Source: a virus
UHGV virus genome: UHGV-0014568
Direction: 5' to 3' (one strand)
Length of the DNA stretch: 37,204 nt
This document shows, one piece after another, positions 3,452 through 37,204 of this stretch. The position numbers were made by a program, and so were the translations under genes. The notes under the pieces were generated by a model that was not told the origin of the DNA, ran no database searches, and was given only the letters and a program-made list of their open reading frames with translations. The stretch's first letter is position 1. Each line of letters opens with the position of its first letter.

Positions 3452-5922
3452 CAGAATCCCCCAACAGTAAGGCGAGGAATAACAGCAAGAACAGACAGCG
3501 GCAACGGGTCAAGCTGACGGATTCTTACACGTCCGTTTTTGCCCCAGTTACTGTCCAGTTTCACTTCTACTTTTCCGGTAGCGTCATCAATAGGATCATC
3601 GTAGAACTCGAATTCACGCTGTGGATATTCGTACCATTTACCGCCGGGCGTAGTCGCCCAGATGCCGCGGCTGGCATTCACAACCAGAGTAACGGAGGGG
3701 ATCACCTGTTTTTTGTCCAGCAGCGTTTCCTGTCCGTTAATGTTGATATCCAGTGTTTCGAATTCAGCAGTTATTGGCAGGCCGATGTGCACTACAGCCC
3801 CTGGTGATTCAAGCGTGACGGCACCTCCGGAAACTACTTTCTGTGGTTCCACGTTCGCATCAGAGAGGATGTTTACGGTCTGACCTTCAAGATGAGACAA
3901 GCCGCCAAATGCCCGGCGCGCCATCTGCCAGTTCGTGGTGGCCACATTCCTGAGGGATGGCGGGACGTTCCTGTTAGCACGAACCACTACAGCGGTGTTG
4001 CTGGTTACAGAAATAATGTCGCAACGTAATTCTTTTGACACTTCATCGCCAGTATCAGGATCAGTTCCGGTATAAGGGAACTGTAGTTGCGCACCGACAT
4101 CACTACTGGTGAAGTACGCACCACCAGAAATACTGATTGTATATTCCGCGCGGTAATCCCATTCGCCAGAACCACCAGTGATGGTCATCGTTCTGTCAGA
4201 CGTATTTCTTCCATCATAGCTAAGGCCAGAATCAACAAAGAAAGCATCTTCATCGCTGGTAAATAAACGGCTGGACAGCCGCTCGATGTATCTCACTGTT
4301 TGCCCGTTAACGGTTCGGTTAACGACGAAATACACTGCATCTTCATTGCCTTCGCTGATACTGCATGTGCTTTCATATTTTCCGGTACTGGATTGTGGTG
4401 CCCATGCAAAAACCTGCTGATCACGCAAATAGGTCATCACCAGTAATTTACCGTCATCACGAATGCAGAAGGCGCTGGAGTAAGGGACAATAGAGAAGCA
4501 CCAGTCAACAATGCTGTGCTTCTGAAAAAGATGATTGGCAAGGATGGTCAGGTCGTTCCCCTGATAGCCGTCAACATCGAATGAGTAGGCCAGATCACGG
4601 ACAACACTGCCTTTCTCCTGGACGAACAGAGCAATATTCGCCACGGCAATTGGTGGGACATTGCTCGAGCCATTTGATCCCTGAGAGCTGAATGCAAATG
4701 ATGATGGGGTAAGCACTTTGTTCTGGTCGCCGGTGATGACGTACTCACCTCCGGAAGTCAGCGCCACCAGCGAACCGACATCAATCAGGTGGCGGATCTC
4801 ATTAACCTGACGCCCGGCATAGGTGTAGATAATTCTGTCGTCATCCTGCGTAGGATTGCTTTTGCCAAAATCCTTATAATCCCCGGTACGGCTGGCCCAG
4901 ATAGTCTGAGGGAACGCAGTCGATGCGGCGAAGTAAAGACGTTGTTGATAATAAACAACAGTGCCAGGATAACCATTAACACTGTTCCAGGCATATTTAG
5001 CCCATTTATAGCTGGCATTATCCTCGCCAACTACCTGCGAAGGGATATAGGAAATCACCTCGGCAGTTGCAGTAGTTCCATTTGCAGCAGTGATACGGGC
5101 AATGCCAAAACCACTGTGCAGATATTCCCACTCAATGCCAGTATCATCATTACCGGATCCGCCCCAGCCATCCCATGATGTGCCTTCTGTATGCGAAGGG
5201 CGCAAAGTACCTGTTTTGCCTGCTGTAACGGCTCGATAGTAGTTACTGTCTGCACGGCGAATATCGCCAATAGACGTACTCTTACTGGTTTCCCATACCG
5301 GCACTGAATCCACTGCAGGCTGTTCCAGATAGAACAATTTGCCTACCTGCTCCGCGCCAAAAATAGAGGCGCTTGCCGTTAACGTAATTGTCCCGGTGCT
5401 GGCGCTGGCATAAACCGTCACTGACTCGTCAATATTGATATCTTCAAATGGCCCGTTCTTCGTTACCACATCAACCAGTTGCCAGTTGTCATGAGCATAT
5501 CGGCGCAACTCTTTCGGCGGGTATGCCGGGTGAACCAGCGTAAGCACGTCGGCGCTTTGCGTGAATTTAATTCGGAACAGATCGGCTTCAGTATATGGCG
5601 TGGCAATTTCATAAATAACATTGCTGCTGTTCAGCACCAACGCACCATCTTTGATAACGCGCATGTACTGGTGTCCGAACTCCAGAGCATAGGTCTGAAC
5701 CGTCGAGAACTGGAACGGGATCAGGCGGCATTTCCGATTTGGGTATTTGGCGGCACCGACAAAACGCGTACCAGGTCGATTCTCAACGCCGCCATACTGC
5801 CGCACGATAAAGTTATCGCACTTGCGCAATGCCACCTGGTACTTCGCCATGTCAATACGCCCGTACAACGACGGTCCAATCTCACCACCGGCAAAGCTGG
5901 GCTGGATCCAACTGATAGCCAT
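3451..5922 (-). CDS. Tail tubular protein B-like (nozzle) protein
   Basis: 823-aa ORF directly after a ~200-aa gene, as T7 gp11/gp12 are; N-terminus MAISWIQPSFAGGEIGPSLYGR resembles the start of podovirus nozzle proteins (recollection). Confidence 0.45.
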   Translation of the reverse strand: MAISWIQPSFAGGEIGPSLYGRIDMAKYQVALRKCDNFIVRQYGGVENRPGTRFVGAAKYPNRKCRLIPFQFSTVQTYALEFGHQYMRVIKDGALVLNSSNVIYEIATPYTEADLFRIKFTQSADVLTLVHPAYPPKELRRYAHDNWQLVDVVTKNGPFEDINIDESVTVYASASTGTITLTASASIFGAEQVGKLFYLEQPAVDSVPVWETSKSTSIGDIRRADSNYYRAVTAGKTGTLRPSHTEGTSWDGWGGSGNDDTGIEWEYLHSGFGIARITAANGTTATAEVISYIPSQVVGEDNASYKWAKYAWNSVNGYPGTVVYYQQRLYFAASTAFPQTIWASRTGDYKDFGKSNPTQDDDRIIYTYAGRQVNEIRHLIDVGSLVALTSGGEYVITGDQNKVLTPSSFAFSSQGSNGSSNVPPIAVANIALFVQEKGSVVRDLAYSFDVDGYQGNDLTILANHLFQKHSIVDWCFSIVPYSSAFCIRDDGKLLVMTYLRDQQVFAWAPQSSTGKYESTCSISEGNEDAVYFVVNRTVNGQTVRYIERLSSRLFTSDEDAFFVDSGLSYDGRNTSDRTMTITGGSGEWDYRAEYTISISGGAYFTSSDVGAQLQFPYTGTDPDTGDEVSKELRCDIISVTSNTAVVVRANRNVPPSLRNVATTNWQMARRAFGGLSHLEGQTVNILSDANVEPQKVVSGGAVTLESPGAVVHIGLPITAEFETLDININGQETLLDKKQVIPSVTLVVNASRGIWATTPGGKWYEYPQREFEFYDDPIDDATGKVEVKLDSNWGKNGRVRIRQLDPLPLSVLAVIPRLTVGGF

Positions 5923-11696: not shown

Positions 11697-11733
11697 TTGA
11701 CATTTAACGCACGAATTATTACCTTTTAGGTAA
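11697..11733 (+). promoter_or_regulatory. Promoter-like region (TTGACA at 11697-11702) with TTACC-N5-GGTAA palindrome (11719-11733) upstream of the tRNA cassette
   Basis: Consensus -35 hexamer; no good -10 at canonical spacing; operator-like palindrome TTACCTTTTAGGTAA overlaps the expected -10/+1 region. Confidence 0.35.
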
Positions 11734-12055: not shown

Positions 12056-12132
12056 GTGGCATTAGCTCAGTCGGACAGAGCAACCGCCTTCTAAGCGGTT
12101 GGTCGCAGGTTCGAATCCTGCATGCCACGCCA
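12056..12132 (+). tRNA. tRNA-Arg (anticodon UCU, reads AGA)
   Basis: Hand-folded cloverleaf: acceptor GTGGCAT/ATGCCAC, D-stem GCTC/GAGC, anticodon stem ACCGC/GCGGT with loop CTTCTAA (TCT at 12090-12092), T-arm GCAGG-TTCGAAT-CCTGC, discriminator G and encoded CCA. Confidence 0.85.
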
Positions 12133-12330: not shown

Positions 12331-12687
12331 ATGAACGACCAGCAAATCGAAAAAGAAATCGTTGAGAAAGGCAAAACGGCACCGCGCGTTACGCCCCAAT
12401 ATATCGAAAGCATCATTCTTGAAGAGCATTTCTTTACTGCTTATGACGGTATTCGTGCCGCCAGTATGGGCGTTGGCGATACGTGGACAGCGCATAAATC
12501 TACAAACCTCCTTACTTTCTGCGTACTGGTGCTGAAGAATGGCTTCACCGTCACCGGAGAGAGCGCATGTGCAAGCCCGGAAAACTTTGATGCAGAAATT
12601 GGTCGGAAGATTGCCCGGCAGAATGCTGTAAACAAAATCTGGATGCTTGAAGGTTACTTGCTGAAGCAGAAGTTAAGCGAGCAATAA
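12331..12687 (+). CDS. Small moron protein, possibly phage Gp49/Sf6 gene-66-like family
   Basis: 118-aa ORF with AAGGTGAG RBS; opposite orientation to the flanking structural genes; family assignment is recollection of a conserved FFTAYDG...GDTW...NGFTVTGESAC pattern. Confidence 0.45.
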   Translation: MNDQQIEKEIVEKGKTAPRVTPQYIESIILEEHFFTAYDGIRAASMGVGDTWTAHKSTNLLTFCVLVLKNGFTVTGESACASPENFDAEIGRKIARQNAVNKIWMLEGYLLKQKLSEQ

Positions 12688-12691
12688 CACC

Positions 12692-12703
12692 GTGACATGT
12701 CAC
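12692..12703. repeat. 12-bp perfect palindrome GTGACATGTCAC (copy 1 of 3)
   Basis: Exact palindrome 5 nt after the stop of the plus-strand moron gene and just before its terminator. Confidence 0.8.
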
Positions 12704-12707
12704 AAAC

Positions 12708-12734
12708 AGCCAGCCTATGAGCTGGCTTTGTTTT
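12708..12734 (+). terminator. Rho-independent terminator for the tRNA/moron cassette
   Basis: 7-bp stem AGCCAGC/GCTGGCT with 6-nt loop followed by TTGTTTT. Confidence 0.6.
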
Positions 12735-12777: not shown

Positions 12778-14253
12778 TTAAGCATAGGGATCGTAATCTG
12801 TAATGGCCTTGCCTTGCTGGTTCTGCTGACCTGGAATTCGCAGACGCTTCGACACAGGGAAAGCAAACGTCAGCAGTAGCGCATCGCCTTTACCCGGCGA
12901 ACGCCCAAGACGCTCTTTGATATCTTCCTTCGGTTCGATAACGATTTTACCGTCCACACGAACTTTGTACTCTGCCGCCGACAGGTCGTCTGCTGTTTCC
13001 TGGTCATCCAGTATGCCGCCCAGCCTCAGCCATGTCTTGCATGAATTGAACATCTCCCCACGCTTGTTGAGCATCTGCGGGTCAGTAGACGCGCCACCGA
13101 ACGGAACAAGTTGCCATGTACGACCCCATCCGTCACCGATTGACTTCAGACCGGTTCCGTAACCGAAGTCGATGAACACCGCGTCAGCCTGGTACTGGTC
13201 TTCAAAGTCAGCGATACGCTTCGCCATAATCAGATCGTCGGTGGTCTTGTTACCAGTCCATAGCACCTTACTGTGCAGCCCCTGCCGCAGGTATATCACC
13301 GCGTCATCAACGCCTGAGTATGCCGGGTCAACGCCGATTATCACCGGAGCATGTGCAACCTGCGCAGCGGTTACCACCCGTTTCATTGCCTCATCAGTAA
13401 GACCGGTAGGGATAAACTGCAATTCAGATGCATCAGGGAATATGCCGCGCACACGGATTTTAACGAAGTCGCTGTCTTCCCCGTAGTCATCAACCCATTT
13501 CTGCAACTGCTGTTTGTTAGTGCCTTCCACCGTCCGGCTGTCAATCTGCGCACACTTCCAGCGGTGTTTGTACTTGCGGAAACATTCACGGAAACGCCCG
13601 GTGTTACGCGTCGGGTTCCCGAACGCCACCCAGATGATTTCGGTGTCTTCGTCCGTCAGCGCACCCTCTGCTACCTCCCACACCAGATCGGCAATGTTCG
13701 ACGCTTCATCGAATACCACGATGATGCGTTTGCGCTCGTTGTGTAGTCCGGCGAATGCCTCAGTGTTGTGCTCAGACCAGGGGATTGCGTCAGCTCGCCA
13801 CCGCTTGTCGTGCCCAGGATCATTGCTGTACATCGCGGTAGCGGTACAGGTAAACCAGTCTTTCGTGATAGCAAGGTTCGACCACTTGATAATTTCCGGC
13901 CAGGTCTTCGTTCGTAGCTGGTTGTCGGTGTTGGCGGTCACCACGACCTTACAATCCTCGCAAGTGGACATGCCCCAGTTGATCAGCATTGAGATGAATG
14001 CGGATTTACCAATACCGTGACCAGAAGCGCGTGCCAGCATAAGCGGCTGATAGCGCGTCTCTGGATTCTGCAGGTGATCACGTATCTCTCGGAACGCATC
14101 AGCCTGCCACTGACGTGGGCCGGTGGCATGTGCCAGTTCAGTCCCCTCTTCCCCCCACGGGAACGCATAGAGGGCATAGCCAAGCGGATCGTGAGTGAAC
14201 CCTGCAATATCCTCGATCAACTGCTCTTCAGGAGATAACGCTGTATCTGTCAC
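12778..14253 (-). CDS. terL: Terminase large subunit
   Basis: 491-aa ORF; Walker A-like GHGIGKS near the N-terminus; overlaps terS by 4 nt; GTG start per ORF track. Confidence 0.85.
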   Translation of the reverse strand: MTDTALSPEEQLIEDIAGFTHDPLGYALYAFPWGEEGTELAHATGPRQWQADAFREIRDHLQNPETRYQPLMLARASGHGIGKSAFISMLINWGMSTCEDCKVVVTANTDNQLRTKTWPEIIKWSNLAITKDWFTCTATAMYSNDPGHDKRWRADAIPWSEHNTEAFAGLHNERKRIIVVFDEASNIADLVWEVAEGALTDEDTEIIWVAFGNPTRNTGRFRECFRKYKHRWKCAQIDSRTVEGTNKQQLQKWVDDYGEDSDFVKIRVRGIFPDASELQFIPTGLTDEAMKRVVTAAQVAHAPVIIGVDPAYSGVDDAVIYLRQGLHSKVLWTGNKTTDDLIMAKRIADFEDQYQADAVFIDFGYGTGLKSIGDGWGRTWQLVPFGGASTDPQMLNKRGEMFNSCKTWLRLGGILDDQETADDLSAAEYKVRVDGKIVIEPKEDIKERLGRSPGKGDALLLTFAFPVSKRLRIPGQQNQQGKAITDYDPYA

Positions 14254-14846
14254 TGATTACCATCCTGACGTTCTTTGAGTCGCTTCCTGGCTGCTGCTAT
14301 GCGATCAGCAATTGTCACATTCACATTAACATCCAGACGTTCTTTGAACGCGTTGACATCAACATGCTTACCAATCAGCTCAAGGTTCTTCACCTTGTCA
14401 GGCCATTTAATTTTTTTGAGGATTGTCTCTATCGAATCCTCGTTCATGTTCATGATGGTCGATGACAGATCAAAGCCACTAAGCGTAGTGCGCCAGATTT
14501 TCGGCCACTCACGGATTGGTTTAAGGCTCCCATCGTCGTTGAGGATGTCGATCACGTCCATCTGGTCGATCTCCACCAGGCGCATGAGAACGTAATCAGC
14601 ACTGACGCGCATTCGTTTGTTGCGCTCCTCCATCAACTCGGCAATCCGTTTTTGAATGCGTTCATCGCGCATCATGACACTGGCTTTAACTGCCGCTGTA
14701 TTTGGGGAGAATCCTGCGTTAATCGCTGCCTGAGTCTGGTTTTCAGGCGTTTTGATGTATGACTGGCAATAAGCCTCCTGCATTGCCGTTAGTGGCTTAA
14801 ATTGCGTTGATTTGCGTTTATAGGTTTTAGGTTCAGCAGGCATCAT
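14250..14846 (-). CDS. terS: Terminase small subunit
   Basis: Immediately upstream of and overlapping terL; ORF track starts at TTG 14924, but the in-frame ATG-ATG at 14846/14843 with a GGTGG RBS is the more likely start (about 198 aa). Confidence 0.65.
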   Translation of the reverse strand: MMPAEPKTYKRKSTQFKPLTAMQEAYCQSYIKTPENQTQAAINAGFSPNTAAVKASVMMRDERIQKRIAELMEERNKRMRVSADYVLMRLVEIDQMDVIDILNDDGSLKPIREWPKIWRTTLSGFDLSSTIMNMNEDSIETILKKIKWPDKVKNLELIGKHVDVNAFKERLDVNVNVTIADRIAAARKRLKERQDGNQ

Positions 14847-14863
14847 AACCACCGTGGTAATAG

Positions 14864-14878
14864 TTACCGTTGTGGTAA
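14864..14878. promoter_or_regulatory. TTACC-N5-GGTAA palindrome (TTACCGTTGTGGTAA) in the terS leader
   Basis: Exact operator-type palindrome 18 nt upstream of the preferred terS ATG, flanked by GTGGTAATAG direct repeats. Confidence 0.5.
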
Positions 14879-14956
14879 TAGTACCATGCAAAATAAAGCC
14901 GCCATAGTTGGCGGCAGTATTCAAAACACGTCAAATTCATCATGCATAATCTACTC

Positions 14957-14968
14957 GTGACATGTCAC
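14957..14968. repeat. 12-bp perfect palindrome GTGACATGTCAC (copy 2 of 3)
   Basis: Exact palindrome overlapping the stop of the upstream 115-aa ORF, about 110 nt upstream of the terS ATG. Confidence 0.8.
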
Positions 14969-15312
14969 ACTATTAATTTCGTTTCATGCCAGCCTTTAGT
15001 CACCCAGCATTGCGAGTCACCATTACACGGGCATGAATTAACTGGAACTCTCTCGCCGCACTTACCGCAACGTTTTCTGCTGATCGATTTTATACGCCCG
15101 CGCACACGTGCATCATCCTGGCGGATCAGCAGCGCGATGTACTCGGCCATTTCATAGGGATCGCGACCAGGGCGCCGGGCGGCGCAGTTCCGCGCCAGCA
15201 TTTCCTGCTCCTGCTTATCCAGCACCAGTTCAATTTTGCGCTCACCGGCGGCGGACTGCCGAGCGCGCTGCGCGGCTTTGCGTTCTGCGGGGGATTTAGC
15301 CACGAACCGCAC
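14965..15312 (-). CDS. Arg-rich protein with C-terminal Cys cluster, unknown function
   Basis: 115-aa ORF (GTG start); C-terminal CGKCG...CPCNG zinc-binding-like motif; start uncertain; overlaps the small ORF 15296..15418. Confidence 0.3.
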   Translation of the reverse strand: MRFVAKSPAERKAAQRARQSAAGERKIELVLDKQEQEMLARNCAARRPGRDPYEMAEYIALLIRQDDARVRGRIKSISRKRCGKCGERVPVNSCPCNGDSQCWVTKGWHETKLIV

Positions 15313-15418
15313 TCCACGCCAGATTGATTAATGACTCCCAGGTAATATAAACCCGGATACCAGCAGCCAGGCCGAAACCAATCACCATGGCATAAAGCAG
15401 AGCGTTGCACTTGTTCAT
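15296..15418 (-). CDS. Possible 40-aa single-pass membrane peptide
   Basis: ATG shares one base with the upstream stop (TGATG); hydrophobic core ALLYAMVIGFGLAAGI; below the ORF-track size cutoff; conflicts with the 115-aa ORF start. Confidence 0.25.
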   Translation of the reverse strand: MNKCNALLYAMVIGFGLAAGIRVYITWESLINLAWSAVRG

Positions 15419-15999
15419 CAGTTCACCTCCTGCGGTGGTTCCGGTAGCGGCATCCAGTGAGTTGAGCTCTCTACTTCGACGCCGTCTTTGTCCACAAAAG
15501 CCATCTTATTCCCGCCACGAGTGGGGCAAAAAACCTTATCCCAAGAACCGGGGAATACATTACCGAGATCATCGAGAAGAATCACATCGCAATATTCAGC
15601 AGGAACTGCATCACTACAGCTTATCCAGCCAGCCGGAGTTACCGGAGGGGTACCCGATAGCGCATTCTGCTCCAGTGATGCTTTTACAAACCACGCTGCC
15701 TGAACTATTACGCCATGAATCCAGCGCAAATCAGCATCGCGATCGTTCTTTTTCATCTTTTCACCACTTAAAGCCTGGCTTATGTGGCTGCATACTAGGT
15801 TTTCATGTAATTCCTTCGCATCCTCAATGGTGAAACCACCAGGTAAACGCCCCGGAGTTACCGGAGAGTTGCCAGCCTTGCGCATGGCAATTTCCACGAT
15901 TTCAACCATATCTTCTGGTGGAATTTTACAATGCTGGCCAATATGCCTCTGCTGTCTGGCATACTCGAGGATGTGCTCCAGCTTGGTTCGATTAATCAT
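15418..15999 (-). CDS. DUF551-like phage protein
   Basis: 193-aa ORF; C-terminal GWISCSDAVPAEYCDVILLDDLGN...THWMPLPEPP matches my recollection of the DUF551 pattern. Confidence 0.45.
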   Translation of the reverse strand: MINRTKLEHILEYARQQRHIGQHCKIPPEDMVEIVEIAMRKAGNSPVTPGRLPGGFTIEDAKELHENLVCSHISQALSGEKMKKNDRDADLRWIHGVIVQAAWFVKASLEQNALSGTPPVTPAGWISCSDAVPAEYCDVILLDDLGNVFPGSWDKVFCPTRGGNKMAFVDKDGVEVESSTHWMPLPEPPQEVN

Positions 16000-16442
16000 G
16001 ATTTATCTCCCTTAAGCATGGCGGCGCGGCAGGCTTCATCAACCATAGCTTCTACGTTTTCGAGAAGTACGTAACTGTACTGCTGCCCGCTAACCCATTC
16101 TTTTCTGCGAGGTAATGCGCGTGGGTCCGCTACAATGGCTCGCAAACGTTCCAGAACAGCTGGTACTGCTGGCGCTGGCGTGGCAGTGTATAGCGCCGTT
16201 GTACCCATCGGCTTATGATTGCATTTCGGGCAAACGTCGTTCTCTCGCCAGTCCTCAATTGTTTCCCACCCGCAGCGACAACATTCGTAACTGATGTAGT
16301 CAGGTTCTGCCTCCAGCGATGCCAGAGCAATCCGTGCCAGCTCTTCCGCTTCTTCTGCTGGCAGTACAACGTTGCTACCAGGTCCGTATGTTTCGCGCCA
16401 CTGCTTGATTGTCAGCAGTCGCTCTTTGGTAATAGTGTTCAT
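15996..16442 (-). CDS. Zinc-ribbon protein, unknown function
   Basis: 148-aa ORF with CCRCG...CPKCNH motif; 4-nt overlaps with both neighbours. Confidence 0.4.
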   Translation of the reverse strand: MNTITKERLLTIKQWRETYGPGSNVVLPAEEAEELARIALASLEAEPDYISYECCRCGWETIEDWRENDVCPKCNHKPMGTTALYTATPAPAVPAVLERLRAIVADPRALPRRKEWVSGQQYSYVLLENVEAMVDEACRAAMLKGDKS

Positions 16443-16804
16443 GCCGTAGCCCCTTCTTGATATTTTTCAAACCAGAACACAACCGGGTCAGATTTCATTT
16501 CAACCAATCCCATACGAACCAGCGCCTTGCCTTTCCCGGACGCAAGGAATTCACGACGACCATCACTGATAATTCGCCGATAATCTTCCAGGCTACTGCA
16601 ATGCTTGTGCAGATTGCATGGGTGGCATGCCGGAACCATGTTGGATATATCGTCACGATCCTGGTGAAGCATATTTCCATCAAAACGAATGACCGGTTTT
16701 ACATGGTCTGCATGCCACTTTTCGCCAAGTTCGCAGCCGCAATAAGCGCAGCGACCACCAAACTTCATGCGCAGCTCTGCACGTTGTTTTTTCGTCAGTG
16801 CCAT
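16439..16804 (-). CDS. HNH endonuclease
   Basis: CAYCGCEL...HADHVKP...CHPCNLHKH motif set; ATG at 16804 with AAGGAAAG RBS preferred over the longer track ORF (start 16894). Confidence 0.7.
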   Translation of the reverse strand: MALTKKQRAELRMKFGGRCAYCGCELGEKWHADHVKPVIRFDGNMLHQDRDDISNMVPACHPCNLHKHCSSLEDYRRIISDGRREFLASGKGKALVRMGLVEMKSDPVVFWFEKYQEGATA

Positions 16805-16805
16805 A

Positions 16806-17024
16806 TCAGCTTTCCTTATATGGATTAATTTTATTGTGCAGTGTGTTGAACGGGGCCCATACCACGTCGTTATACAATTCAATAACTGGCTCAATTATTT
16901 TCCCGATTGCCCAGACAAAAATTAGCAGGGATATCGGTATCATCAACACGACAAACAGAATGAGAAACAGAAATTCTACAGCCCTGTTTTTTCGCGGATA
17001 TTTTTTTCTGAATAATGTGACCAT
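16806..17024 (-). CDS. Small single-pass membrane protein
   Basis: 72-aa ORF; basic N-terminus followed by hydrophobic stretch LFLILFVVLMIPISLLIFVWAIG. Confidence 0.35.
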   Translation of the reverse strand: MVTLFRKKYPRKNRAVEFLFLILFVVLMIPISLLIFVWAIGKIIEPVIELYNDVVWAPFNTLHNKINPYKES

Positions 17025-18811: not shown

Positions 18812-19612
18812 TTACTTGATAAATCCTGACGCCTTTCCCCGCCTGTATTCCTCCATCAGCCACTGCGCCGGTGTTATTCCCCCCAGGGTGGCGGCGTTAG
18901 GCATACACCCGAAACTTCGCCCTGGTGGATGGTAAACGTCTCTCCCTGTGTCCGGAGGCGTACTCATGGGTTCTGGCTTTGCCTGTATGCTGATCACCGG
19001 ATCGGGTATCTGCTGTCCGGAAGCCACCTTTTTCGCCCAATCATCGAGCAGCCTGCGCGCGTGTTTCTCAACCTCAATCTCGCTAAGCTGGCGCTGATAC
19101 ATTGCACGGCGGGTATCACATACGACCCAGTACATAACCGGATGCCGCCACGGGAATCTTTCGGGACCACCAGGATATAAACTTTTTTCCTTGCTGTACC
19201 GGTGAAACTCCGTCATCACATCGTCAATGGTGACGCCAAGAACCATCTTGCTGTCTTTGCACCACTTGATGAATTGCCCTGGCGACGGCCAGAACGGAGA
19301 ATCACTGGCGCGGGCGTGGCGCATACCAGCAGAAACCTGTTCACGGGTTCGGATCCCCCCTTCGGCAAACGCAGCAATCCACTGCTGTTTTGCAGCAACT
19401 TCCTGCTCTGGCGTCTTCAGGTTGGTTACCACTGCCGCCGGAAACAGTTGTTTCAACTGTTTGAAAAGGGCATCAACAAGCCTCTCTGCTGACATGTTCA
19501 CTACGTTGTCATTGTTGGTGTACTGATGCTCATAACCTGACATGCGAGAAAGGGCCTCTCCGTCACGGTTTTGTATTGCGGTAAAAACGTTGTTCACAAG
19601 AAATCCTCCCAT
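18812..19612 (-). CDS. Replication protein P-like helicase loader
   Basis: 266-aa ORF; segment QWIAAFAEGGIRTREQVSAGMRHARASDSPFWPSPGQFIKWCKD parallels lambda P (QWVLAFRENGITTMEQVNAGMRVARRQNRPFLPSPGQFVAWCRE) from memory. Confidence 0.7.
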   Translation of the reverse strand: MGGFLVNNVFTAIQNRDGEALSRMSGYEHQYTNNDNVVNMSAERLVDALFKQLKQLFPAAVVTNLKTPEQEVAAKQQWIAAFAEGGIRTREQVSAGMRHARASDSPFWPSPGQFIKWCKDSKMVLGVTIDDVMTEFHRYSKEKSLYPGGPERFPWRHPVMYWVVCDTRRAMYQRQLSEIEVEKHARRLLDDWAKKVASGQQIPDPVISIQAKPEPMSTPPDTGRDVYHPPGRSFGCMPNAATLGGITPAQWLMEEYRRGKASGFIK

Positions 19613-20457
19613 GCTTCAGGGCTGTTCCAGTGCGGAACGTTGTTATCAGGTAATGTTGATTGCTTCTGTCTGCTAATCTGCAGCCGCCTTGCCAGCTTCT
19701 GCTCCCACTGTGCCTGATGGTATGCCTTACCCTCAGCCATCCAGTAAATTCTGAACTCTGCAAGTTCCTGTGCCGTTGGCAGACTGTCCAGGTAGATCCC
19801 CTGCAATGAGCTTTTCCGAAGAAAGTCATCTGATGGCTGCCATTGTTCATGCATGACAAATTTGCCTAATTGCCCTGGCCCACCAGGAGGAACAAAGTTA
19901 TTCATCACGGCGTTGTTTGCGCCGGGGTCATGAGGCACAGAATTCCCGTTTTTTGTCCTGCTCTCCCTCTCTTGGTTAAATGACTGGTTATATGACTGGT
20001 TCTGGATCCCGTTTTTGGGATCATTCAACATCCCGTTTTTGGGATCATTCAACATCCCGTTTTTGGGATCATTCAACATCCCGTTTTTGGGATCATTCAA
20101 CATCCCGTTTTTGGGTATATTCCCGTTTTCGGTAACATTACCGTTTTCGGGTTCATTACCCCCTTCCCGGTTGCCTTTAATGTTCCCGTTTTTGGTTATA
20201 TTAAGAGAGAAAACCCGCACTCTTTTCGTCGCTCCCTTTCTCTCTCCGGTATCTGAAATAAGCCCCATTTTCATGAGCGATATAAGCCCGGCCTGCACGG
20301 TTTTTTTATTCAGGCAAGTGTCTTTAACGAGGCGTTCTATGCTGGGGTAGCAGAGGTTATATTCATCGGCTCTGTCAGCCATCGAGAGCAGTATGAGCTT
20401 TAATGATGAGCTGCCTGGATCTGTCTCCCAAGCCCAATCTGTTGCATGTCTGCTCAT
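19594..20457 (-). CDS. Replication initiator (O-like position) with DnaT-like C-terminal domain and internal iteron-encoded repeats
   Basis: 287-aa ORF; C-terminal GKFVMHEQWQPSDDF...YWMAEGKAYHQAQWEQKLARRLQ resembles E. coli DnaT; contains GMLNDPKN x4 encoded by the 24-bp iterons; GGAG RBS. Confidence 0.65.
   Translation of the reverse strand: MSRHATDWAWETDPGSSSLKLILLSMADRADEYNLCYPSIERLVKDTCLNKKTVQAGLISLMKMGLISDTGERKGATKRVRVFSLNITKNGNIKGNREGGNEPENGNVTENGNIPKNGMLNDPKNGMLNDPKNGMLNDPKNGMLNDPKNGIQNQSYNQSFNQERESRTKNGNSVPHDPGANNAVMNNFVPPGGPGQLGKFVMHEQWQPSDDFLRKSSLQGIYLDSLPTAQELAEFRIYWMAEGKAYHQAQWEQKLARRLQISRQKQSTLPDNNVPHWNSPEAWEDFL
20006..20101. repeat. Four perfect tandem 24-bp direct repeats (ATCCCGTTTTTGGGATCATTCAAC), probable replication-origin iterons
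   Basis: Exact head-to-tail copies at 20006, 20030, 20054 and 20078, followed by degenerate CCCGTTTT(C/T)GG copies to about 20215 and preceded by a TGACTGGTT x2 repeat; all inside the replication initiator gene. Confidence 0.7.
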
Positions 20458-21208: not shown

Positions 21209-21793
21209 ATGAAAAGTATCCAGGACGTCCGCAGGCAAAATCTCAACGACTTGATCGACCGTGAATTCAATGGTGTTCAGACGCGGATGGCAGAAAAACT
21301 TGGAACTCAGGCAAATCTGGTAAACCGCTGGGCTCTTGGCAAGAAGGTTATCGGCGACCAGGTTGCGCGAAAAATTGAAGCTGCCGCCAATAAACCCCGT
21401 AACTGGCTTGATATCGATCGCTCGCTTTCTCAAGAAGGTTTTCAGCCTGTCGGACCAAGCGACATTGGTCAGCTGGCGGCTCACAACCTGGAACGCTGGA
21501 TGAGCGAAAGCCGAGACCTTTCAACGCAGGGAAAACTTCACCGCGCATCCGGCGTCGCCCAGGTGACAATCAGCCGCCTGTTAAACAATGAGGTCAGCGT
21601 TTCCATTTCCACCCTGGAGAATGTTGCATCCGCATTCGGGCGTCACGGCTATGAATTACTGATTCACCCGCACGACCCTGCGACTATCAACTATGATCGC
21701 TCGCGCTACGCATTGTTACCTGAAACAGAGAAGGCAAAGATCGAAAGTTACATTGAATTTGTCATCAACCAGAACGAAAAAAGCAAACAATAA
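21209..21793 (+). CDS. Prophage repressor candidate (CI position) with two XRE-type HTH domains and no peptidase domain
   Basis: 194-aa ORF between the OR-like and OL-like regions, with its own terminator; two HTH-like segments (QTRMAEKLGTQANLVNRW and GVAQVTISRLLNNE); no Ser/Lys S24 autopeptidase motifs seen. Confidence 0.5.
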   Translation: MKSIQDVRRQNLNDLIDREFNGVQTRMAEKLGTQANLVNRWALGKKVIGDQVARKIEAAANKPRNWLDIDRSLSQEGFQPVGPSDIGQLAAHNLERWMSESRDLSTQGKLHRASGVAQVTISRLLNNEVSVSISTLENVASAFGRHGYELLIHPHDPATINYDRSRYALLPETEKAKIESYIEFVINQNEKSKQ

Positions 21794-32102: not shown

Positions 32103-32360
32103 ATGCAGCAGTATCACTATCCACTGGAAGACGGATTTACCGAAAGGATTCACACGCCGGGAGGCGTCAGGTCACTGGTGGAGGGATCGCACTTGATGAA
32201 ATTACTCCGGGATCTCGATAAGGATGGATTTAATGTCGATGGCCCACTTGCCGAACTGACTGCACTGATTAACTACGTCACCAGCTCACAGATGTCTATG
32301 CAGGATCTGCAAACACATCTCGACTATTGTGCCGAACAATTGCGAAAACAAACCACATAA
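32103..32360 (+). CDS. Small SOS-regulated protein, candidate antirepressor
   Basis: 85 aa from ATG 32103 with GGAGAAG RBS (track's TTG start at 32085 is less likely); opposite orientation to the flanking virion genes; no family recognised. Confidence 0.5.
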   Translation: MQQYHYPLEDGFTERIHTPGGVRSLVEGSHLMKLLRDLDKDGFNVDGPLAELTALINYVTSSQMSMQDLQTHLDYCAEQLRKQTT

Positions 32361-32382
32361 AGAAAAGGCCGCGAAAGCGGCC
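32351..32382 (-). terminator. Terminator-like hairpin GGCCGC-GAAA-GCGGCC with minus-strand U-rich tail
   Basis: Perfect 6-bp GC stem at 32367-32382; TTTTCTTTATG follows on the minus strand (end of internal-virion-protein transcript); no T-run on the plus side. Confidence 0.45.
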
Positions 32383-32383
32383 T

Positions 32384-32395
32384 GTGACATGTCAC
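32384..32395. repeat. 12-bp perfect palindrome GTGACATGTCAC (copy 3 of 3)
   Basis: Exact palindrome abutting the GC hairpin between two convergent genes. Confidence 0.8.
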
Positions 32396-35032: not shown

Positions 35033-36835
35033 TTAACCTCTCAAGAAACACGCCACAGCGACATCAAACAGGCTGGAATCCTGTATTGCCTGCTCACTTT
35101 CCCTGTTCGCTTCATCCAGTACTTCACGCGCGCTGCGCGATTGTGGATTACCATCATCATCCAGCACGGTTATTATCATGTCCGGTGATTCAAGCAGCGA
35201 GTCTTCAGCTATGCGCAGATCAATATCTCCTGCCGGATCTGCCATCATCTTTTGTTCTGCCTGTTGCAATATCTTACCTGGCTCAAAAGGAGCTACTTCG
35301 TCTGGCGTCCTGACCTCTGCTGTTTTATAGAATGAAACAGCCTGAGCATTAAGTTCACTCTCAGCCTGCTGTCGCCGTGCCAGTTCTGCTCGAGCTTCAA
35401 AAAACTGACCGCCAGGCTCGTGCGGTGCCAACGCGTTACGGGAAAATTCCAGGCGTTCTTGTGCCTGCCGGATTCGTTGATCAATATCGCGAAGTCTGGC
35501 CTGTTTATCTGATCGAGCACGAGACAAAGCTTTACCGCTACCGGTTGGATCTTCTGCAAGAATTTGTGCACGCTGTTCAGTGAGATTTTCAATAATTCGT
35601 TGGCTATTAGCGATTTCAGACTGGTAAACCTGTCTATCTCCACGCGGCAAAAGCTGCGCGGCCTGTTCTTCAAGCAACCGATTTTCTATAGCGCGCGCCG
35701 TTACTCCATCATCTACAGATGACAGAGCCTCATTAACTGCCTGAGACAGCAGACTCTTGCGCCCAGGAATTTCACTGAAAGATGCAGACTCAACAATGCT
35801 GGCAACGTCTACAGGTCTCCCTTGGCTAACATCAGACATAGCTTTTCGCAGAGCCTGAATGTGAGAATTGCGCGAAAGCACGTTGATCGGCACGCCGGGC
35901 GCAATATCAATTTCAGCATGATGAGCGGCATTCGCCGCCAGTGCAGCATCGATATCAACTGGTGAAAAATTTGGTGCGTTTGTAGACTCGCCGCGAGAGT
36001 TAATAAATCTGCCGACACCACCAAACGCCACCCCAAGAACAGCATCAATAGCAATTGCCTGTCGATCCAACACATCATACTGGTTAGCCATTTCGCTATA
36101 GCCACCATCACGAAGCGTTTTTGCAGTAAGCCCACGCTGTGCCATACCGAACGCAATATTTGTACCTGCGGCATAGGCAATATCTGGCGTTGCACGTACT
36201 GCTGTTGCTGCGGCGCGTCGCACTGAACTCTCACCCGTCCGCGCAAGCTGAGCCGCCACACCTTCCGCCAGCGCACCACCAGCACGTAACCCGAGGCTCA
36301 TAGGGATCAGTGTTCCGGCACCAGCAGCAATGCCCTGCACTAATCCCGCTTCCTGCGCCGTCCTGAAATCAACACCCTGTGCTGTCAGCCGTTCAAACTC
36401 AGAAAAACCCTGTAGCGAAGTTACCGCCGCTGCACCTCCGACAGGACCACCGAGCGTTGTACCGACAACAGCCTGCCCGCCCATATCGAACAACCCATAA
36501 AGAACCTGCCCGGCGGTTCCGGTTGTCGCGGCATCAGGCGTCAGCCGCTTAACCTGCTGCTCTGCTAGTTTTCTCTGCTCAGCAATGTATGAAACTGAAG
36601 TGTCATTGAGCGAGGTGTTTTCGTTAACAAACTGAGCAATCGGGGATACGATTTTATCCATCCCTGCCCATAGCAACTGATCTGGCTTTGCCACCAGCCC
36701 GGAGTACAAACCAGACAATGCCGCTCCTACAGCGTTGTCGAAAAAACCAACATCGCTGTTAAAGCCAGCTGGATTTGATGCTGCTTCGTCAAGCTGCTGA
36801 TTCTGGTTTACTGGATTAAGGCCAAAGTAACTCAT
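35033..36835 (-). CDS. Gly/Ala-rich internal virion (ejection) protein
   Basis: 600-aa ORF with a Gly/Ala-rich hydrophobic N-half and a charged coiled-coil C-half. Confidence 0.45.
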   Translation of the reverse strand: MSYFGLNPVNQNQQLDEAASNPAGFNSDVGFFDNAVGAALSGLYSGLVAKPDQLLWAGMDKIVSPIAQFVNENTSLNDTSVSYIAEQRKLAEQQVKRLTPDAATTGTAGQVLYGLFDMGGQAVVGTTLGGPVGGAAAVTSLQGFSEFERLTAQGVDFRTAQEAGLVQGIAAGAGTLIPMSLGLRAGGALAEGVAAQLARTGESSVRRAAATAVRATPDIAYAAGTNIAFGMAQRGLTAKTLRDGGYSEMANQYDVLDRQAIAIDAVLGVAFGGVGRFINSRGESTNAPNFSPVDIDAALAANAAHHAEIDIAPGVPINVLSRNSHIQALRKAMSDVSQGRPVDVASIVESASFSEIPGRKSLLSQAVNEALSSVDDGVTARAIENRLLEEQAAQLLPRGDRQVYQSEIANSQRIIENLTEQRAQILAEDPTGSGKALSRARSDKQARLRDIDQRIRQAQERLEFSRNALAPHEPGGQFFEARAELARRQQAESELNAQAVSFYKTAEVRTPDEVAPFEPGKILQQAEQKMMADPAGDIDLRIAEDSLLESPDMIITVLDDDGNPQSRSAREVLDEANRESEQAIQDSSLFDVAVACFLRG

Positions 36836-37179
36836 TGCGGAATATCTCCGGAGAATCTCTGACGCTTCTGTGTCAGATTAAGAACAACGGGAGAACCATC
36901 ATCTTTCAGCAGATAACCAGTACCAAGTTTCACCAGGTACTGACTATCGCCGTAACTTTGCAAACCATACTGACCAGGCGGTGTTTTTATCCCGGAGCCG
37001 ACAACTTGTTCATTCCAAGCCTGATTAACCTGCTTATCGAATTGCTCTGCAGACATTCCCCACGGCAAAAGGACATTCCCCATTCCGTTATAGTCATGCA
37101 CGCCACCTGTAGCTACGTTAACAGCCTGTTTCCAGACATCATTGTCAATTTCGCCTGATACCACGCCTTTTTTCGCCAT
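36832..37179 (-). CDS. Small virion-associated protein
   Basis: About 115 aa from ATG 37179 (GTG at 37182 also possible) with AAGGA RBS; stop overlaps the next gene start. Confidence 0.35.
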   Translation of the reverse strand: MAKKGVVSGEIDNDVWKQAVNVATGGVHDYNGMGNVLLPWGMSAEQFDKQVNQAWNEQVVGSGIKTPPGQYGLQSYGDSQYLVKLGTGYLLKDDGSPVVLNLTQKRQRFSGDIPQ

Positions 37180-37204
37180 CACACCAGCGTAATAATCCTT
37201 TGCG

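Follow-up and report, generated by a model that had tools for sequence, protein, structure and literature searches.

In epsilon15 and phiV10, the junction that runs from gp49 or p55 to terS has a regular layout: replication genes, DUF1064 or RuvC, and Ea-like accessory genes come first and are followed by a 112-aa regulator, a leader, terS and terL. The site at which packaging begins differs among headful phages. SPP1 has its pac site over the terS promoter and the 5' part of terS, while P22, Sf6 and P1, which are headful phages of enterobacteria, have theirs within the gene for the small subunit. Some cos terminases require an HNH protein as a partner (PMC9410871; PMC13595911), and the known packaging HNH cofactors are encoded directly adjacent to terS and terL and are conserved with them (PMC13595911; PMC12967558). 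A preliminary description of the DNA analysed here (UHGV virus genome UHGV-0014568; 37,204 nucleotides, hereafter the window) had proposed that an HNH endonuclease upstream of terS acts with a cos-type terminase, and that the packaging start site may lie in the intervening leader.

Gene map of the early-late junction

Judged from gene order and nucleotide identity, the window is a temperate E. coli podophage of the epsilon15/phiV10-like Uetakevirus group. Its gene order agrees with those of epsilon15, phiV10, Tyrion and other relatives, and nucleotide identity to phiV10-group phages across terS and terL is 95-97%. No complete E. coli genome covered 80% or more of 12778-16900, and a tRNA was the sole match in an Rfam search. 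The genes at the junction, in the order in which they are read, are:

16806-17024, minus strand: DUF4014 small membrane protein gene (Pfam DUF4014, E=7.4e-24)
16439-16804, minus strand: HNH endonuclease, an ORF of 121 aa with its ATG at 16804
15996-16442, minus strand: 148-aa ORF (phrog_60 and phrog_660, both families of unknown function)
15418-15999, minus strand: DUF551 protein of 193 aa (Pfam DUF551, E=7.9e-19)
15296-15418, minus strand: 40-aa ORF (phrog_5525, E=2e-29), hydrophobic by sequence
14965-15303, minus strand: 112-aa Cys-rich 'transcriptional regulator' (phrog_536, E=5.5e-54)
14250-14846, minus strand: terS, small terminase (Pfam Terminase_2, E=1e-29; phrog_51, E=7.7e-58)
12778-14253, minus strand: terL, large terminase (phrog_2, E=1e-52)

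The HNH gene, four small genes, a 118-nt leader (14847-14964), terS and terL thus follow one another on the minus strand, and the terS ATG begins at position 14846. The terminase genes are syntenic with the 112-aa regulator, a homologue of phiV10 p55 and epsilon15 gp49 and the last gene before the late genes, as at other Uetakevirus early-late junctions. With a probability of roughly three in four, the region would mark the transition from the early-right operon, of which it holds the 3' end, to the late (packaging) genes.

From the DUF4014 gene through the regulator, start and stop codons overlap or abut; for instance, the start codon of the 148-aa ORF overlaps the HNH stop codon. The HNH gene is packed into this operon with no promoter of its own, and would be translated from it together with its neighbours. 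Only the first ~50 aa of the 148-aa ORF are common to neighbouring genes in relatives, and the 40-aa ORF is kept in L006 and L008. The DUF4014 gene adjoins HNH homologues in ArgO145, HK225, g341c and E. coli prophages, and so usually accompanies this HNH where it occurs in other phages.

The HNH protein matches Pfam HNH (PF01844) above the cut-off at E=1.9e-6 and phrog_2118 at E=3.4e-56. Its catalytic motif, CxxC...DH...N...CxxC, is complete, is of the beta-beta-alpha-metal type found in gp74-type packaging HNH proteins, and has residues that align with those of the GVE2 HNH (4h9d), although the similarity between the two proteins reaches only E=0.054. A NinG/Rap-like role was considered and rejected, as the Pfam NinG match is below cut-off and covers the HNH core only.

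The HNH gene and the terminase

If the HNH, like HK97 gp74, helped TerS and TerL to cleave concatemers, here at a cos-type site within the leader, an intact catalytic motif and a gene that lies 1.6 kb upstream of terS and is read in the same direction would be in keeping with that role, for which there is precedent in the cos terminases that require HNH proteins (PMC9410871; PMC13595911). However, the 1,593 nt between the HNH gene and terS hold four ORFs, a terminator and two operators, placing the HNH gene in the early operon beyond a terminator, and the direct adjacency to terS and terL that is a trait of packaging HNH proteins is thus missing. BLASTP of the window HNH against HK97 gp74 gave no alignment. 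Neither is the gene conserved together with the terminase, as it is carried by only 4 of 31 relatives. For instance, phiV10, TL-2011b, EC.W1-9 and PH444 have a TerS identical to that of the window at 198/198 residues and TerL proteins that are 97-99% identical, and yet none of them has a match to the HNH. Across the whole phiV10 and epsilon15 genomes there is likewise neither an HNH match nor an annotated HNH, and phiV10, with the same TerS, forms plaques. Because identical or near-identical terminases occur in phages without the HNH, it is probably not needed by the terminase, and would be an optional cargo gene and no terminase partner.

The terminase itself also seems to differ from what had been proposed. 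TerS, which is 100% identical to that of phiV10 and 77% identical to that of epsilon15, matches the small terminase of Bacillus phage SF6 (3zqp, E=6.7e-7) and is of the SF6/SPP1 type; TerL is 99% and 95% identical to its phiV10 and epsilon15 counterparts, respectively, and is distantly similar to P1 PacB. The likeness of both subunits to pac-type proteins suggests a pac/headful enzyme and not a cos enzyme. Together with the distribution of the gene, this makes a gp74-like partnership at a cos-type site very improbable.

Stx, HK225 and P22-like phages encode the nearest HNH homologues, in accessory regions that are distant from any terminase. Copies that are 99% identical occur in Stx2a phages and one E. 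coli prophage; in the Stx phage ArgO145, the gene lies among Ea22-like, toxin-antitoxin and anti-repressor genes. The HK225 homologue (61% identical) follows replication genes and adjoins a DUF4014 gene, and that of the P22-like g341c (49% identical) adjoins DUF4014 and Ea22 genes. In contrast, the siphoviruses Bas77-80 encode a 48%-identical HNH just upstream of their terminase genes; in Bas77 this arrangement would favour a packaging partner, and packaging roles within the protein family are therefore conceivable. Tyrion has an unrelated HNH in the same accessory region, which could imply a selective value for a nuclease there.

Like a free-standing homing endonuclease, the window HNH is sporadic in close relatives and present in unrelated phages. 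The genes flanking it differ between carriers, and thus a simple single-gene insertion is not evident. From these comparisons, a stand-alone nuclease, accessory or selfish, is the likeliest identity of the HNH. Its gene would belong to a set of exchangeable cargo genes that separate the replication genes from the conserved 112-aa regulator, and would move between lambdoid, P22-like and epsilon15-like prophages, often with a DUF4014 gene.

The terS leader

The components named in the preliminary description (the HNH gene, terS, a leader, an operator-type palindrome and a copy of GTGACATGTCAC) are all present at the positions that it gave, and its regulatory leader is borne out by repressor-type operators, a terminator and a promoter-like element. 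From the regulator towards terS, and including the first base of the gene, the elements are:

14957-14968, no strand: GTGACATGTCAC copy 1, overlapping the TGA stop codon of the regulator
14921-14947, minus strand: mini-ORF MHDEFDVF*, from comparison of the leader with L006 and L003
14898-14915, minus strand: intrinsic-terminator-like hairpin GCCGCCAACTATGGCGGC, then TTTATTTTG (T run)
14878-14886, minus strand: extended -10 promoter-like element TGGTACTAT, read from the sequence
14845-14879, minus strand: tandem operators O1 (14863-14879) and O2 (14845-14861), motif ATTACC-N5-GGTAAT

The operator-type palindrome described earlier corresponds to two tandem copies of ATTACC-N5-GGTAAT, with a spacing of 18 nt, and O2 overlaps the terS start codon. 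In the window, 2, 9 and 11 copies of the motif are present at 0, 1 and 2 mismatches, compared with 0, 0.03 and 0.9 in 200 shuffles. They sit at the head of most transcription units, some in pairs 18 or 62 bp apart, and also flank the repressor gene. At least one copy lies directly upstream of terS in all 35 relatives, and in the epsilon15 GenBank record the same site is annotated as 'protein_bind: repressor'. The window repressor (21209-21793) is a clear homologue of SPC32H Rep (5D50, E=3.5e-42). However, the repressors of epsilon15 and the phiV10 group are only 43% identical and nevertheless have one operator motif in common, and therefore the motif could belong to another conserved protein.

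The last two bases of TGGTACTAT are the first two of O1, and the same overlap between -10 element and operator occurs at the PL-like and DUF1064 promoters. The extended -10 sequence TGnTAnTAT is found in 33 of the 35 relatives. The hairpin, which the preliminary description did not include, is present in 28 of 35, and its epsilon15 equivalent is annotated as a rho-independent terminator. These elements are kept although the length of the spacer varies among the 35 genomes. Some relatives have a 70-aa ORF or a LexA-controlled UmuD-like ORF between the regulator and terS, whereas the window has neither; by leader comparison, its mini-ORF is what remains of the 70-aa one.

From the arrangement of these elements, we infer a transcriptional control point, at which the repressor would bind and the extended -10 element would act as a promoter. 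The early operon would end at the regulator stop codon and the intrinsic terminator, and a weak extended -10 promoter would come next. The two operators would cover the start region of this promoter and the terS ribosome site, so that the prophage repressor would shut off terminase expression directly. In this phage group, the early-to-late junction thereby resolves into a terminator, a putative extended -10 promoter and a pair of operators that cover the start of terS, a map that suggests direct silencing of the terminase genes in the prophage.

A packaging role for the same stretch was also considered. The recognition and first-cut site of a headful system could lie in or beside the leader (14850-14970) independently of the HNH, as in SPP1, where pac lies around the terS 5' end. 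The small terminase does belong to the Terminase_2 family and matches that of SF6, and the leader's promoter and operators are conserved in 33-35 of the 35 genomes compared. Nevertheless, the conserved motifs are not unique to the site, as the genome carries 11 copies of the operator and three dispersed copies of the palindrome, and the segment from palindrome to terminator, a remnant ORF, is prone to insertions and falls into three length classes. In P22, Sf6 and P1, moreover, pac is inside the small-subunit gene. The accessible literature gave nothing usable on virion-DNA end mapping for epsilon15, phiV10 or Uetakevirus. The starts of the phiV10 and epsilon15 GenBank records were rejected as a guide to physical ends, since the phiV10 record begins past the stop codon of its final gene and thereby splits the palindrome. 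A pac site in the leader is thus unlikely, and none of the motifs ahead of terS (operators, terminator or palindrome) constitutes evidence for a packaging site, contrary to the earlier suggestion that they mark the packaging start.

The 112-aa regulator and the palindromes

The regulator has 738 homologues, all unnamed, and five invariant cysteines. Sequence and profile searches against Pfam, NCBIfam and PDB gave no match. An AlphaFold2 model has a pLDDT of 66.5, and helices 33-46 and 55-79 are its only well-predicted parts; a Foldseek search of PDB with this low-confidence model was also negative. A ribbon-helix-helix fold, guessed from the sequence pattern, gained no support from the sequence, profile and fold searches.

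Exactly three copies of GTGACATGTCAC occur in the window (two beyond the one at 14957), compared with 0.05 expected by chance. The other two are:

12692-12703, no strand: copy 2 (element 12692-12727), adjoining a hairpin at 12708-12727
32384-32395, minus strand: copy 3 (element 32357-32395), then terminator GGCCGCTTTCGCGGCC and a T run

Copy 2 lies between terL and a convergent Gp49-family gene, and copy 3 past the last virion gene, ahead of the tail-fibre gene. All three positions are the same in epsilon15 and phiV10, and copy 1 is present with at most one mismatch in 35/35 contiguous relatives. In a scan of IMG/VR for the 14-mer TGTGACATGTCACG, 61 of 135 matches listed were in Uetakevirus-like contexts; the remaining instances are probably chance matches, given the size of the collection and a query of only 14 letters. 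A host CRP/FNR-type site was rejected, as the GTGA-N4-TCAC spacing of the palindrome does not fit the N6 spacing of CRP sites. Every Uetakevirus examined keeps GTGACATGTCAC at three operon ends, neither more nor fewer. Tentatively, the palindrome could be what the 112-aa regulator recognises, in DNA or in RNA, the two forming a new type of late-gene switch. If so, terminator read-through or boundary insulation would be controlled at each operon end and not at a single promoter.

The order of regulator, palindrome, terminator and late genes also resembles a Q-like late switch, in which a promoter overlapping the palindrome would make a short terminated RNA unless the 112-aa regulator modified RNA polymerase, and the leader would serve mainly antitermination and not repression. 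A promoter-like GTGACA-18-CATGAT does use a palindrome half-site, epsilon15 has GTGACA-17-TAAATT, and hairpins directly adjoin the other two palindromes, at the ends of operons. However, although the terminator is kept in most relatives, the promoter match is at chance level (5 found, compared with 5.4 expected in the region), and an inserted ORF separates the palindrome from the terminator in 19 of the 35 genomes compared. Nor does the regulator resemble a known Q family or any Pfam family, and the fold search gave no match. We consider a Q-like switch doubtful, and the preferred reading is that of a repressor-controlled entry into the late genes.

Comparison with known systems

The HK97 gp74-type cofactors (also in phi-SLT-type staphylococcal phages, Geobacillus GVE2 and, as HrdP, lactococcal Skunavirus) resemble the window HNH in being small HNH or zinc-finger nucleases encoded upstream on the same strand. 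The window HNH differs in its 1.6 kb distance, in belonging to another transcription unit, in its sporadic occurrence, in being unrelated in sequence to gp74 and in accompanying a pac-like terminase. An HNH gene within a few kb of a terminase is, as a caution, no evidence of a packaging role, and near-identical phages without the gene offer a cheap comparison that settles such questions.

A closer likeness is to the stand-alone HNH genes in the ea/nin accessory regions of lambdoid and P22-like phages (ArgO145 gp11, HK225 gp55 and g341c gp24). These are of the same size and have DUF4014 or Ea22-like neighbours, but their phages have other morphotypes and their map positions differ. While the order of the conserved genes is that of epsilon15 and phiV10, the accessory cargo is different: the window has DUF4014-HNH-148aa-DUF551, epsilon15 has DUF4014-DUF551 and no HNH, and phiV10 has Ea22-like, ASCH and other genes instead. 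The leader has the same terminator and the same ATTACC-N5-GGTAAT site as in these two phages, and the epsilon15 record annotates both elements. Lastly, SPC32H Rep binds palindromic sites as a tetramer (PMC9638917), and such binding fits the paired operators of the window, 18 or 62 bp apart.

Genome type and gene content of the locus

Across terS and terL, the genes for the small and large terminase subunits (TerS and TerL), nucleotide identity is 95-97% to phiV10, O157 typing phages 9 and 10, ZX5, TL-2011b, and others, and approximately 82% to epsilon15. The annotated epsilon15, phiV10, and Tyrion records share one map with the window: replication genes, DUF1064 or RuvC, an Ea-like accessory run, a 112-aa regulator, terS, terL, and portal. 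Joining positions 36830-37204 to 1-2450 yields one continuous 939-aa frame, a homologue of phiV10 p18 (838 aa) with approximately 100 extra residues. Because this frame runs unbroken across the ends, the window is probably a circularly permuted complete Uetakevirus genome and not a prophage flanked by host DNA. Within this known phage group the locus is unremarkable; its cargo genes form a different set. All of its genes are on the minus strand, and they are listed here in the direction of transcription.

Genes of the locus, with families assigned by Pfam and PHROG matches
16806-17024 (-): DUF4014 gene (Pfam)
16439-16804 (-): HNH gene, 121 aa (Pfam HNH, E=1.9e-6; phrog_2118, E=3.4e-56)
15996-16442 (-): 148-aa ORF, no function assigned
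15418-15999 (-): DUF551 gene (Pfam)
15296-15418 (-): 40-aa ORF (phrog_5525)
14965-15303 (-): 112-aa "transcriptional regulator" (phrog_536)
14847-14964 (-): leader, 118 nt
14250-14846 (-): terS (Pfam Terminase_2, E=1e-29)
12778-14253 (-): terL (phrog_2, E=1e-52)

The HNH gene, leader, and terS noted in the preliminary description are thus confirmed, and of the coordinates that delimited them, 14846 is the base at which the terS start codon begins and 16804 the one at which the HNH start codon begins. From DUF4014 to the regulator, each start codon overlaps or abuts the preceding stop codon, indicating a single packed operon. The 148-aa ORF has only its N-terminal ~50 residues in common (90-96% identity) with the N-termini of DUF551/Ea22 genes from TL-2011b, EC.W1-9, and PH444 that differ elsewhere, a pattern resembling a recombination joint located within gene starts. 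Between terL and the portal operon, the opposite strand carries as cargo a tRNA-Arg (anticodon TCT; 12056-12132, +) and a Gp49/Sf6-gp66-family gene (12331-12687, +). In the DnaT-like replication-initiator protein (19594-20457, -), the 8-residue unit PKNGMLND occurs four to five times in tandem, reflecting a 24-nt repeat in the gene.

The terS leader

The earlier reading of a regulatory leader was right: a hairpin, a -10-like element, and operators lie within the 118 nt before terS. The hairpin is annotated as a rho-independent terminator in the epsilon15 GenBank record.

Features between the regulator and terS
14968-14957: palindrome GTGACATGTCAC, which overlaps the regulator's TGA stop codon
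14947-14921 (-): mini-ORF MHDEFDVF*, 27 nt
14915-14898 (-): hairpin GCCGCCAACTATGGCGGC, then TTTATTTTG
14886-14878 (-): TGGTACTAT, a putative extended -10 element
14879-14863 (-): operator-type palindrome O1, ATTACCACAACGGTAAC
14861-14845 (-): operator-type palindrome O2, ATTACCACGGTGGTTAT, whose last two bases start the terS ATG

Among 35 relatives with contiguous regulator and terS, the palindrome on the regulator's stop codon and at least one operator no more than 70 nt from terS are present in all 35, TGnTAnTAT in 33, and the GCCGCC...GGCGGC hairpin in 28. Spacing falls into three classes.

Spacing between regulator and terS in the 35 relatives
103-121 nt: 16 relatives; content as in the window
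~307 nt: 11 relatives; intact 70-aa ORF, of which the window mini-ORF is a remnant
406-466 nt: 8 relatives; LexA box and UmuD-like ORF

In the window (14921-14947), only 8 codons are left of the 70-aa ORF (5144-5356 in locus L006), whose intact form E. coli 2013C-4538 and PH444 retain. The LexA-box promoter and UmuD-like ORF are found in Klebsiella and Enterobacter relatives (leaders of loci L009-L011). These classes mark the stretch from palindrome to terminator as an insertion hotspot and not as a conserved site.

Operators and repressor

The operator-type palindrome reported before terS is real, but it is not singular. The motif ATTACC-N5-GGTAAT occurs 2, 9, and 11 times in the window when 0, 1, and 2 mismatches are allowed (at 11718, 14845, 14863, 18697, 18759, 21138, 21850, 21912, 26994, 28708, and 32011), against means of 0, 0.03, and 0.9 in 200 dinucleotide shuffles. 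Copies, frequently paired 18 or 62 bp apart, flank the repressor gene and precede DUF1064, terS, the portal operon, the tail-fibre gene, the lysis genes, and int. The PL-like and DUF1064 promoters each have a good -35/-10 pair whose end coincides exactly with the operator's first two bases, and the -10/operator overlap in the terS leader is arranged in the same way.

The epsilon15 GenBank record labels these operator sites "protein_bind: repressor, lysogeny"; one of them, at 12-27, is in the terS leader of epsilon15. The window repressor (21209-21793) is only 43% identical to epsilon15 gp38, with a well-conserved N-terminal helix-turn-helix region, and is clearly homologous to SPC32H Rep (5D50, E=3.5e-42), whose tetramers bind palindromic sites (PMC9638917). 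Given the many copies, the epsilon15 annotation, and the Rep homology, the leader operator is most simply read as a repressor site that would keep terS and terL silent in the lysogen. The distribution of operators suggests that the repressor directly silences both early and late operons.

A palindrome trio at operon ends

The GTGACATGTCAC copy described in the terS leader is present at 14957-14968, and two further exact copies (12692-12703 and 32384-32395) bring the total to 3, where 0.05 are expected. Epsilon15 (record L004; 2142, 19517, and 39612), phiV10, and Tyrion each have three palindromes at places homologous to those of the window; the third copy spans the record junction in phiV10, where it has one mismatch, and in Tyrion. 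Every Uetakevirus checked has exactly three, at homologous operon ends. The copy at 14957 overlaps the regulator's stop codon, that at 12692 is separated by 3-4 nt from the hairpin that follows terL, and that at 32384 lies 1-3 nt ahead of the terminator after the last virion gene. The hairpin beside the second copy varies in sequence among lineages, whereas the palindrome is constant. At all three sites, homology between genomes is lost on one side, where variable cargo starts. No annotation of the palindrome was found in the public epsilon15 and phiV10 records, and it had no Rfam match.

Regulators with only 51-59% identity still carry the palindrome on their stop codon, and others at 38-53% identity have the stop codon without it. 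None of the regulator's 738 homologues is named, and five cysteines (C43, CxxC, CPC) are invariant among them. Its structure model is of low confidence, and no Pfam, NCBIfam, PDB, profile, or fold match was obtained; its "transcriptional regulator" label therefore rests on annotation only. That the palindrome is the target of this adjacent protein is the most attractive idea, and the trio and the regulator are the only parts of the locus that merit a small follow-up.

Packaging and the HNH protein

The leader motifs had also been read as a hint that packaging may start in 14850-14970; these motifs give that no support, since the operator has many copies. The palindrome's three dispersed copies likewise argue against its being a pac site. 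TerS resembles its counterpart in Bacillus phage SF6 (3zqp, E=6.7e-7), an SPP1-like pac phage. TerL had no Pfam match and, by tblastn, only distant similarity to P1 PacB (E=5e-7) and "terminase B" of clostridial and enterococcal phages. Among the notes in the epsilon15 record are HHpred matches to SF6 TerS and Sf6 gp2, and the epsilon15 genome paper reportedly speaks of a "nonredundant genome". The TerL of Pseudomonas phage Ab31 is 53% identical to that of the window, and the Ab31 genome ends could not be localised by PCR (PMC3974807). Together, these features point to headful packaging as the inferred mode; a literature search for this phage group found no mapped genome ends.

The HNH protein had been proposed to act with the terminase. 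In the Bas77-80 siphoviruses, a homologue with 48% identity is encoded just upstream of terminase genes, so the protein family as such may have a packaging role. For this locus, comparison contradicts the coupling. TerS is identical (198/198) and TerL 97-99% identical in phiV10, TL-2011b, EC.W1-9, PH444, and the prophage of E. coli 2013C-4538, and among these five only the last has an HNH homologue. None was detected by tblastn in the whole phiV10 and epsilon15 genomes, nor is any HNH annotated in their records. Of 31 relatives whose sequence extends 2.5 kb or more upstream of the regulator, 4 (the window included) carry this HNH; Tyrion has an unrelated HNH within the same accessory region. 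None of 5,426 complete E. coli genomes contained at least 80% of 12778-16900; in many, the terminase is accompanied by different cargo, and others carry HNH and DUF4014 but not this terminase.

The closest HNH homologues are far from terminases: a 99% identical copy in Stx2a phage ArgO145 lies amid Ea22-like, toxin-antitoxin, and anti-repressor genes, a 61% identical copy in HK225 follows the replication genes beside DUF4014, and a 49% identical copy is found in the P22-like g341c. BLASTP gave no alignment with HK97 gp74, the known cofactor of this kind. This comparative evidence argues that the HNH protein is not a partner of the terminase. HNH proteins known to assist terminases are encoded immediately beside terS/terL and are conserved together with these genes (PMC13595911, PMC12967558, PMC9410871), whereas the HNH gene of the window belongs to the early operon, 1.6 kb from terS and with a terminator in between.
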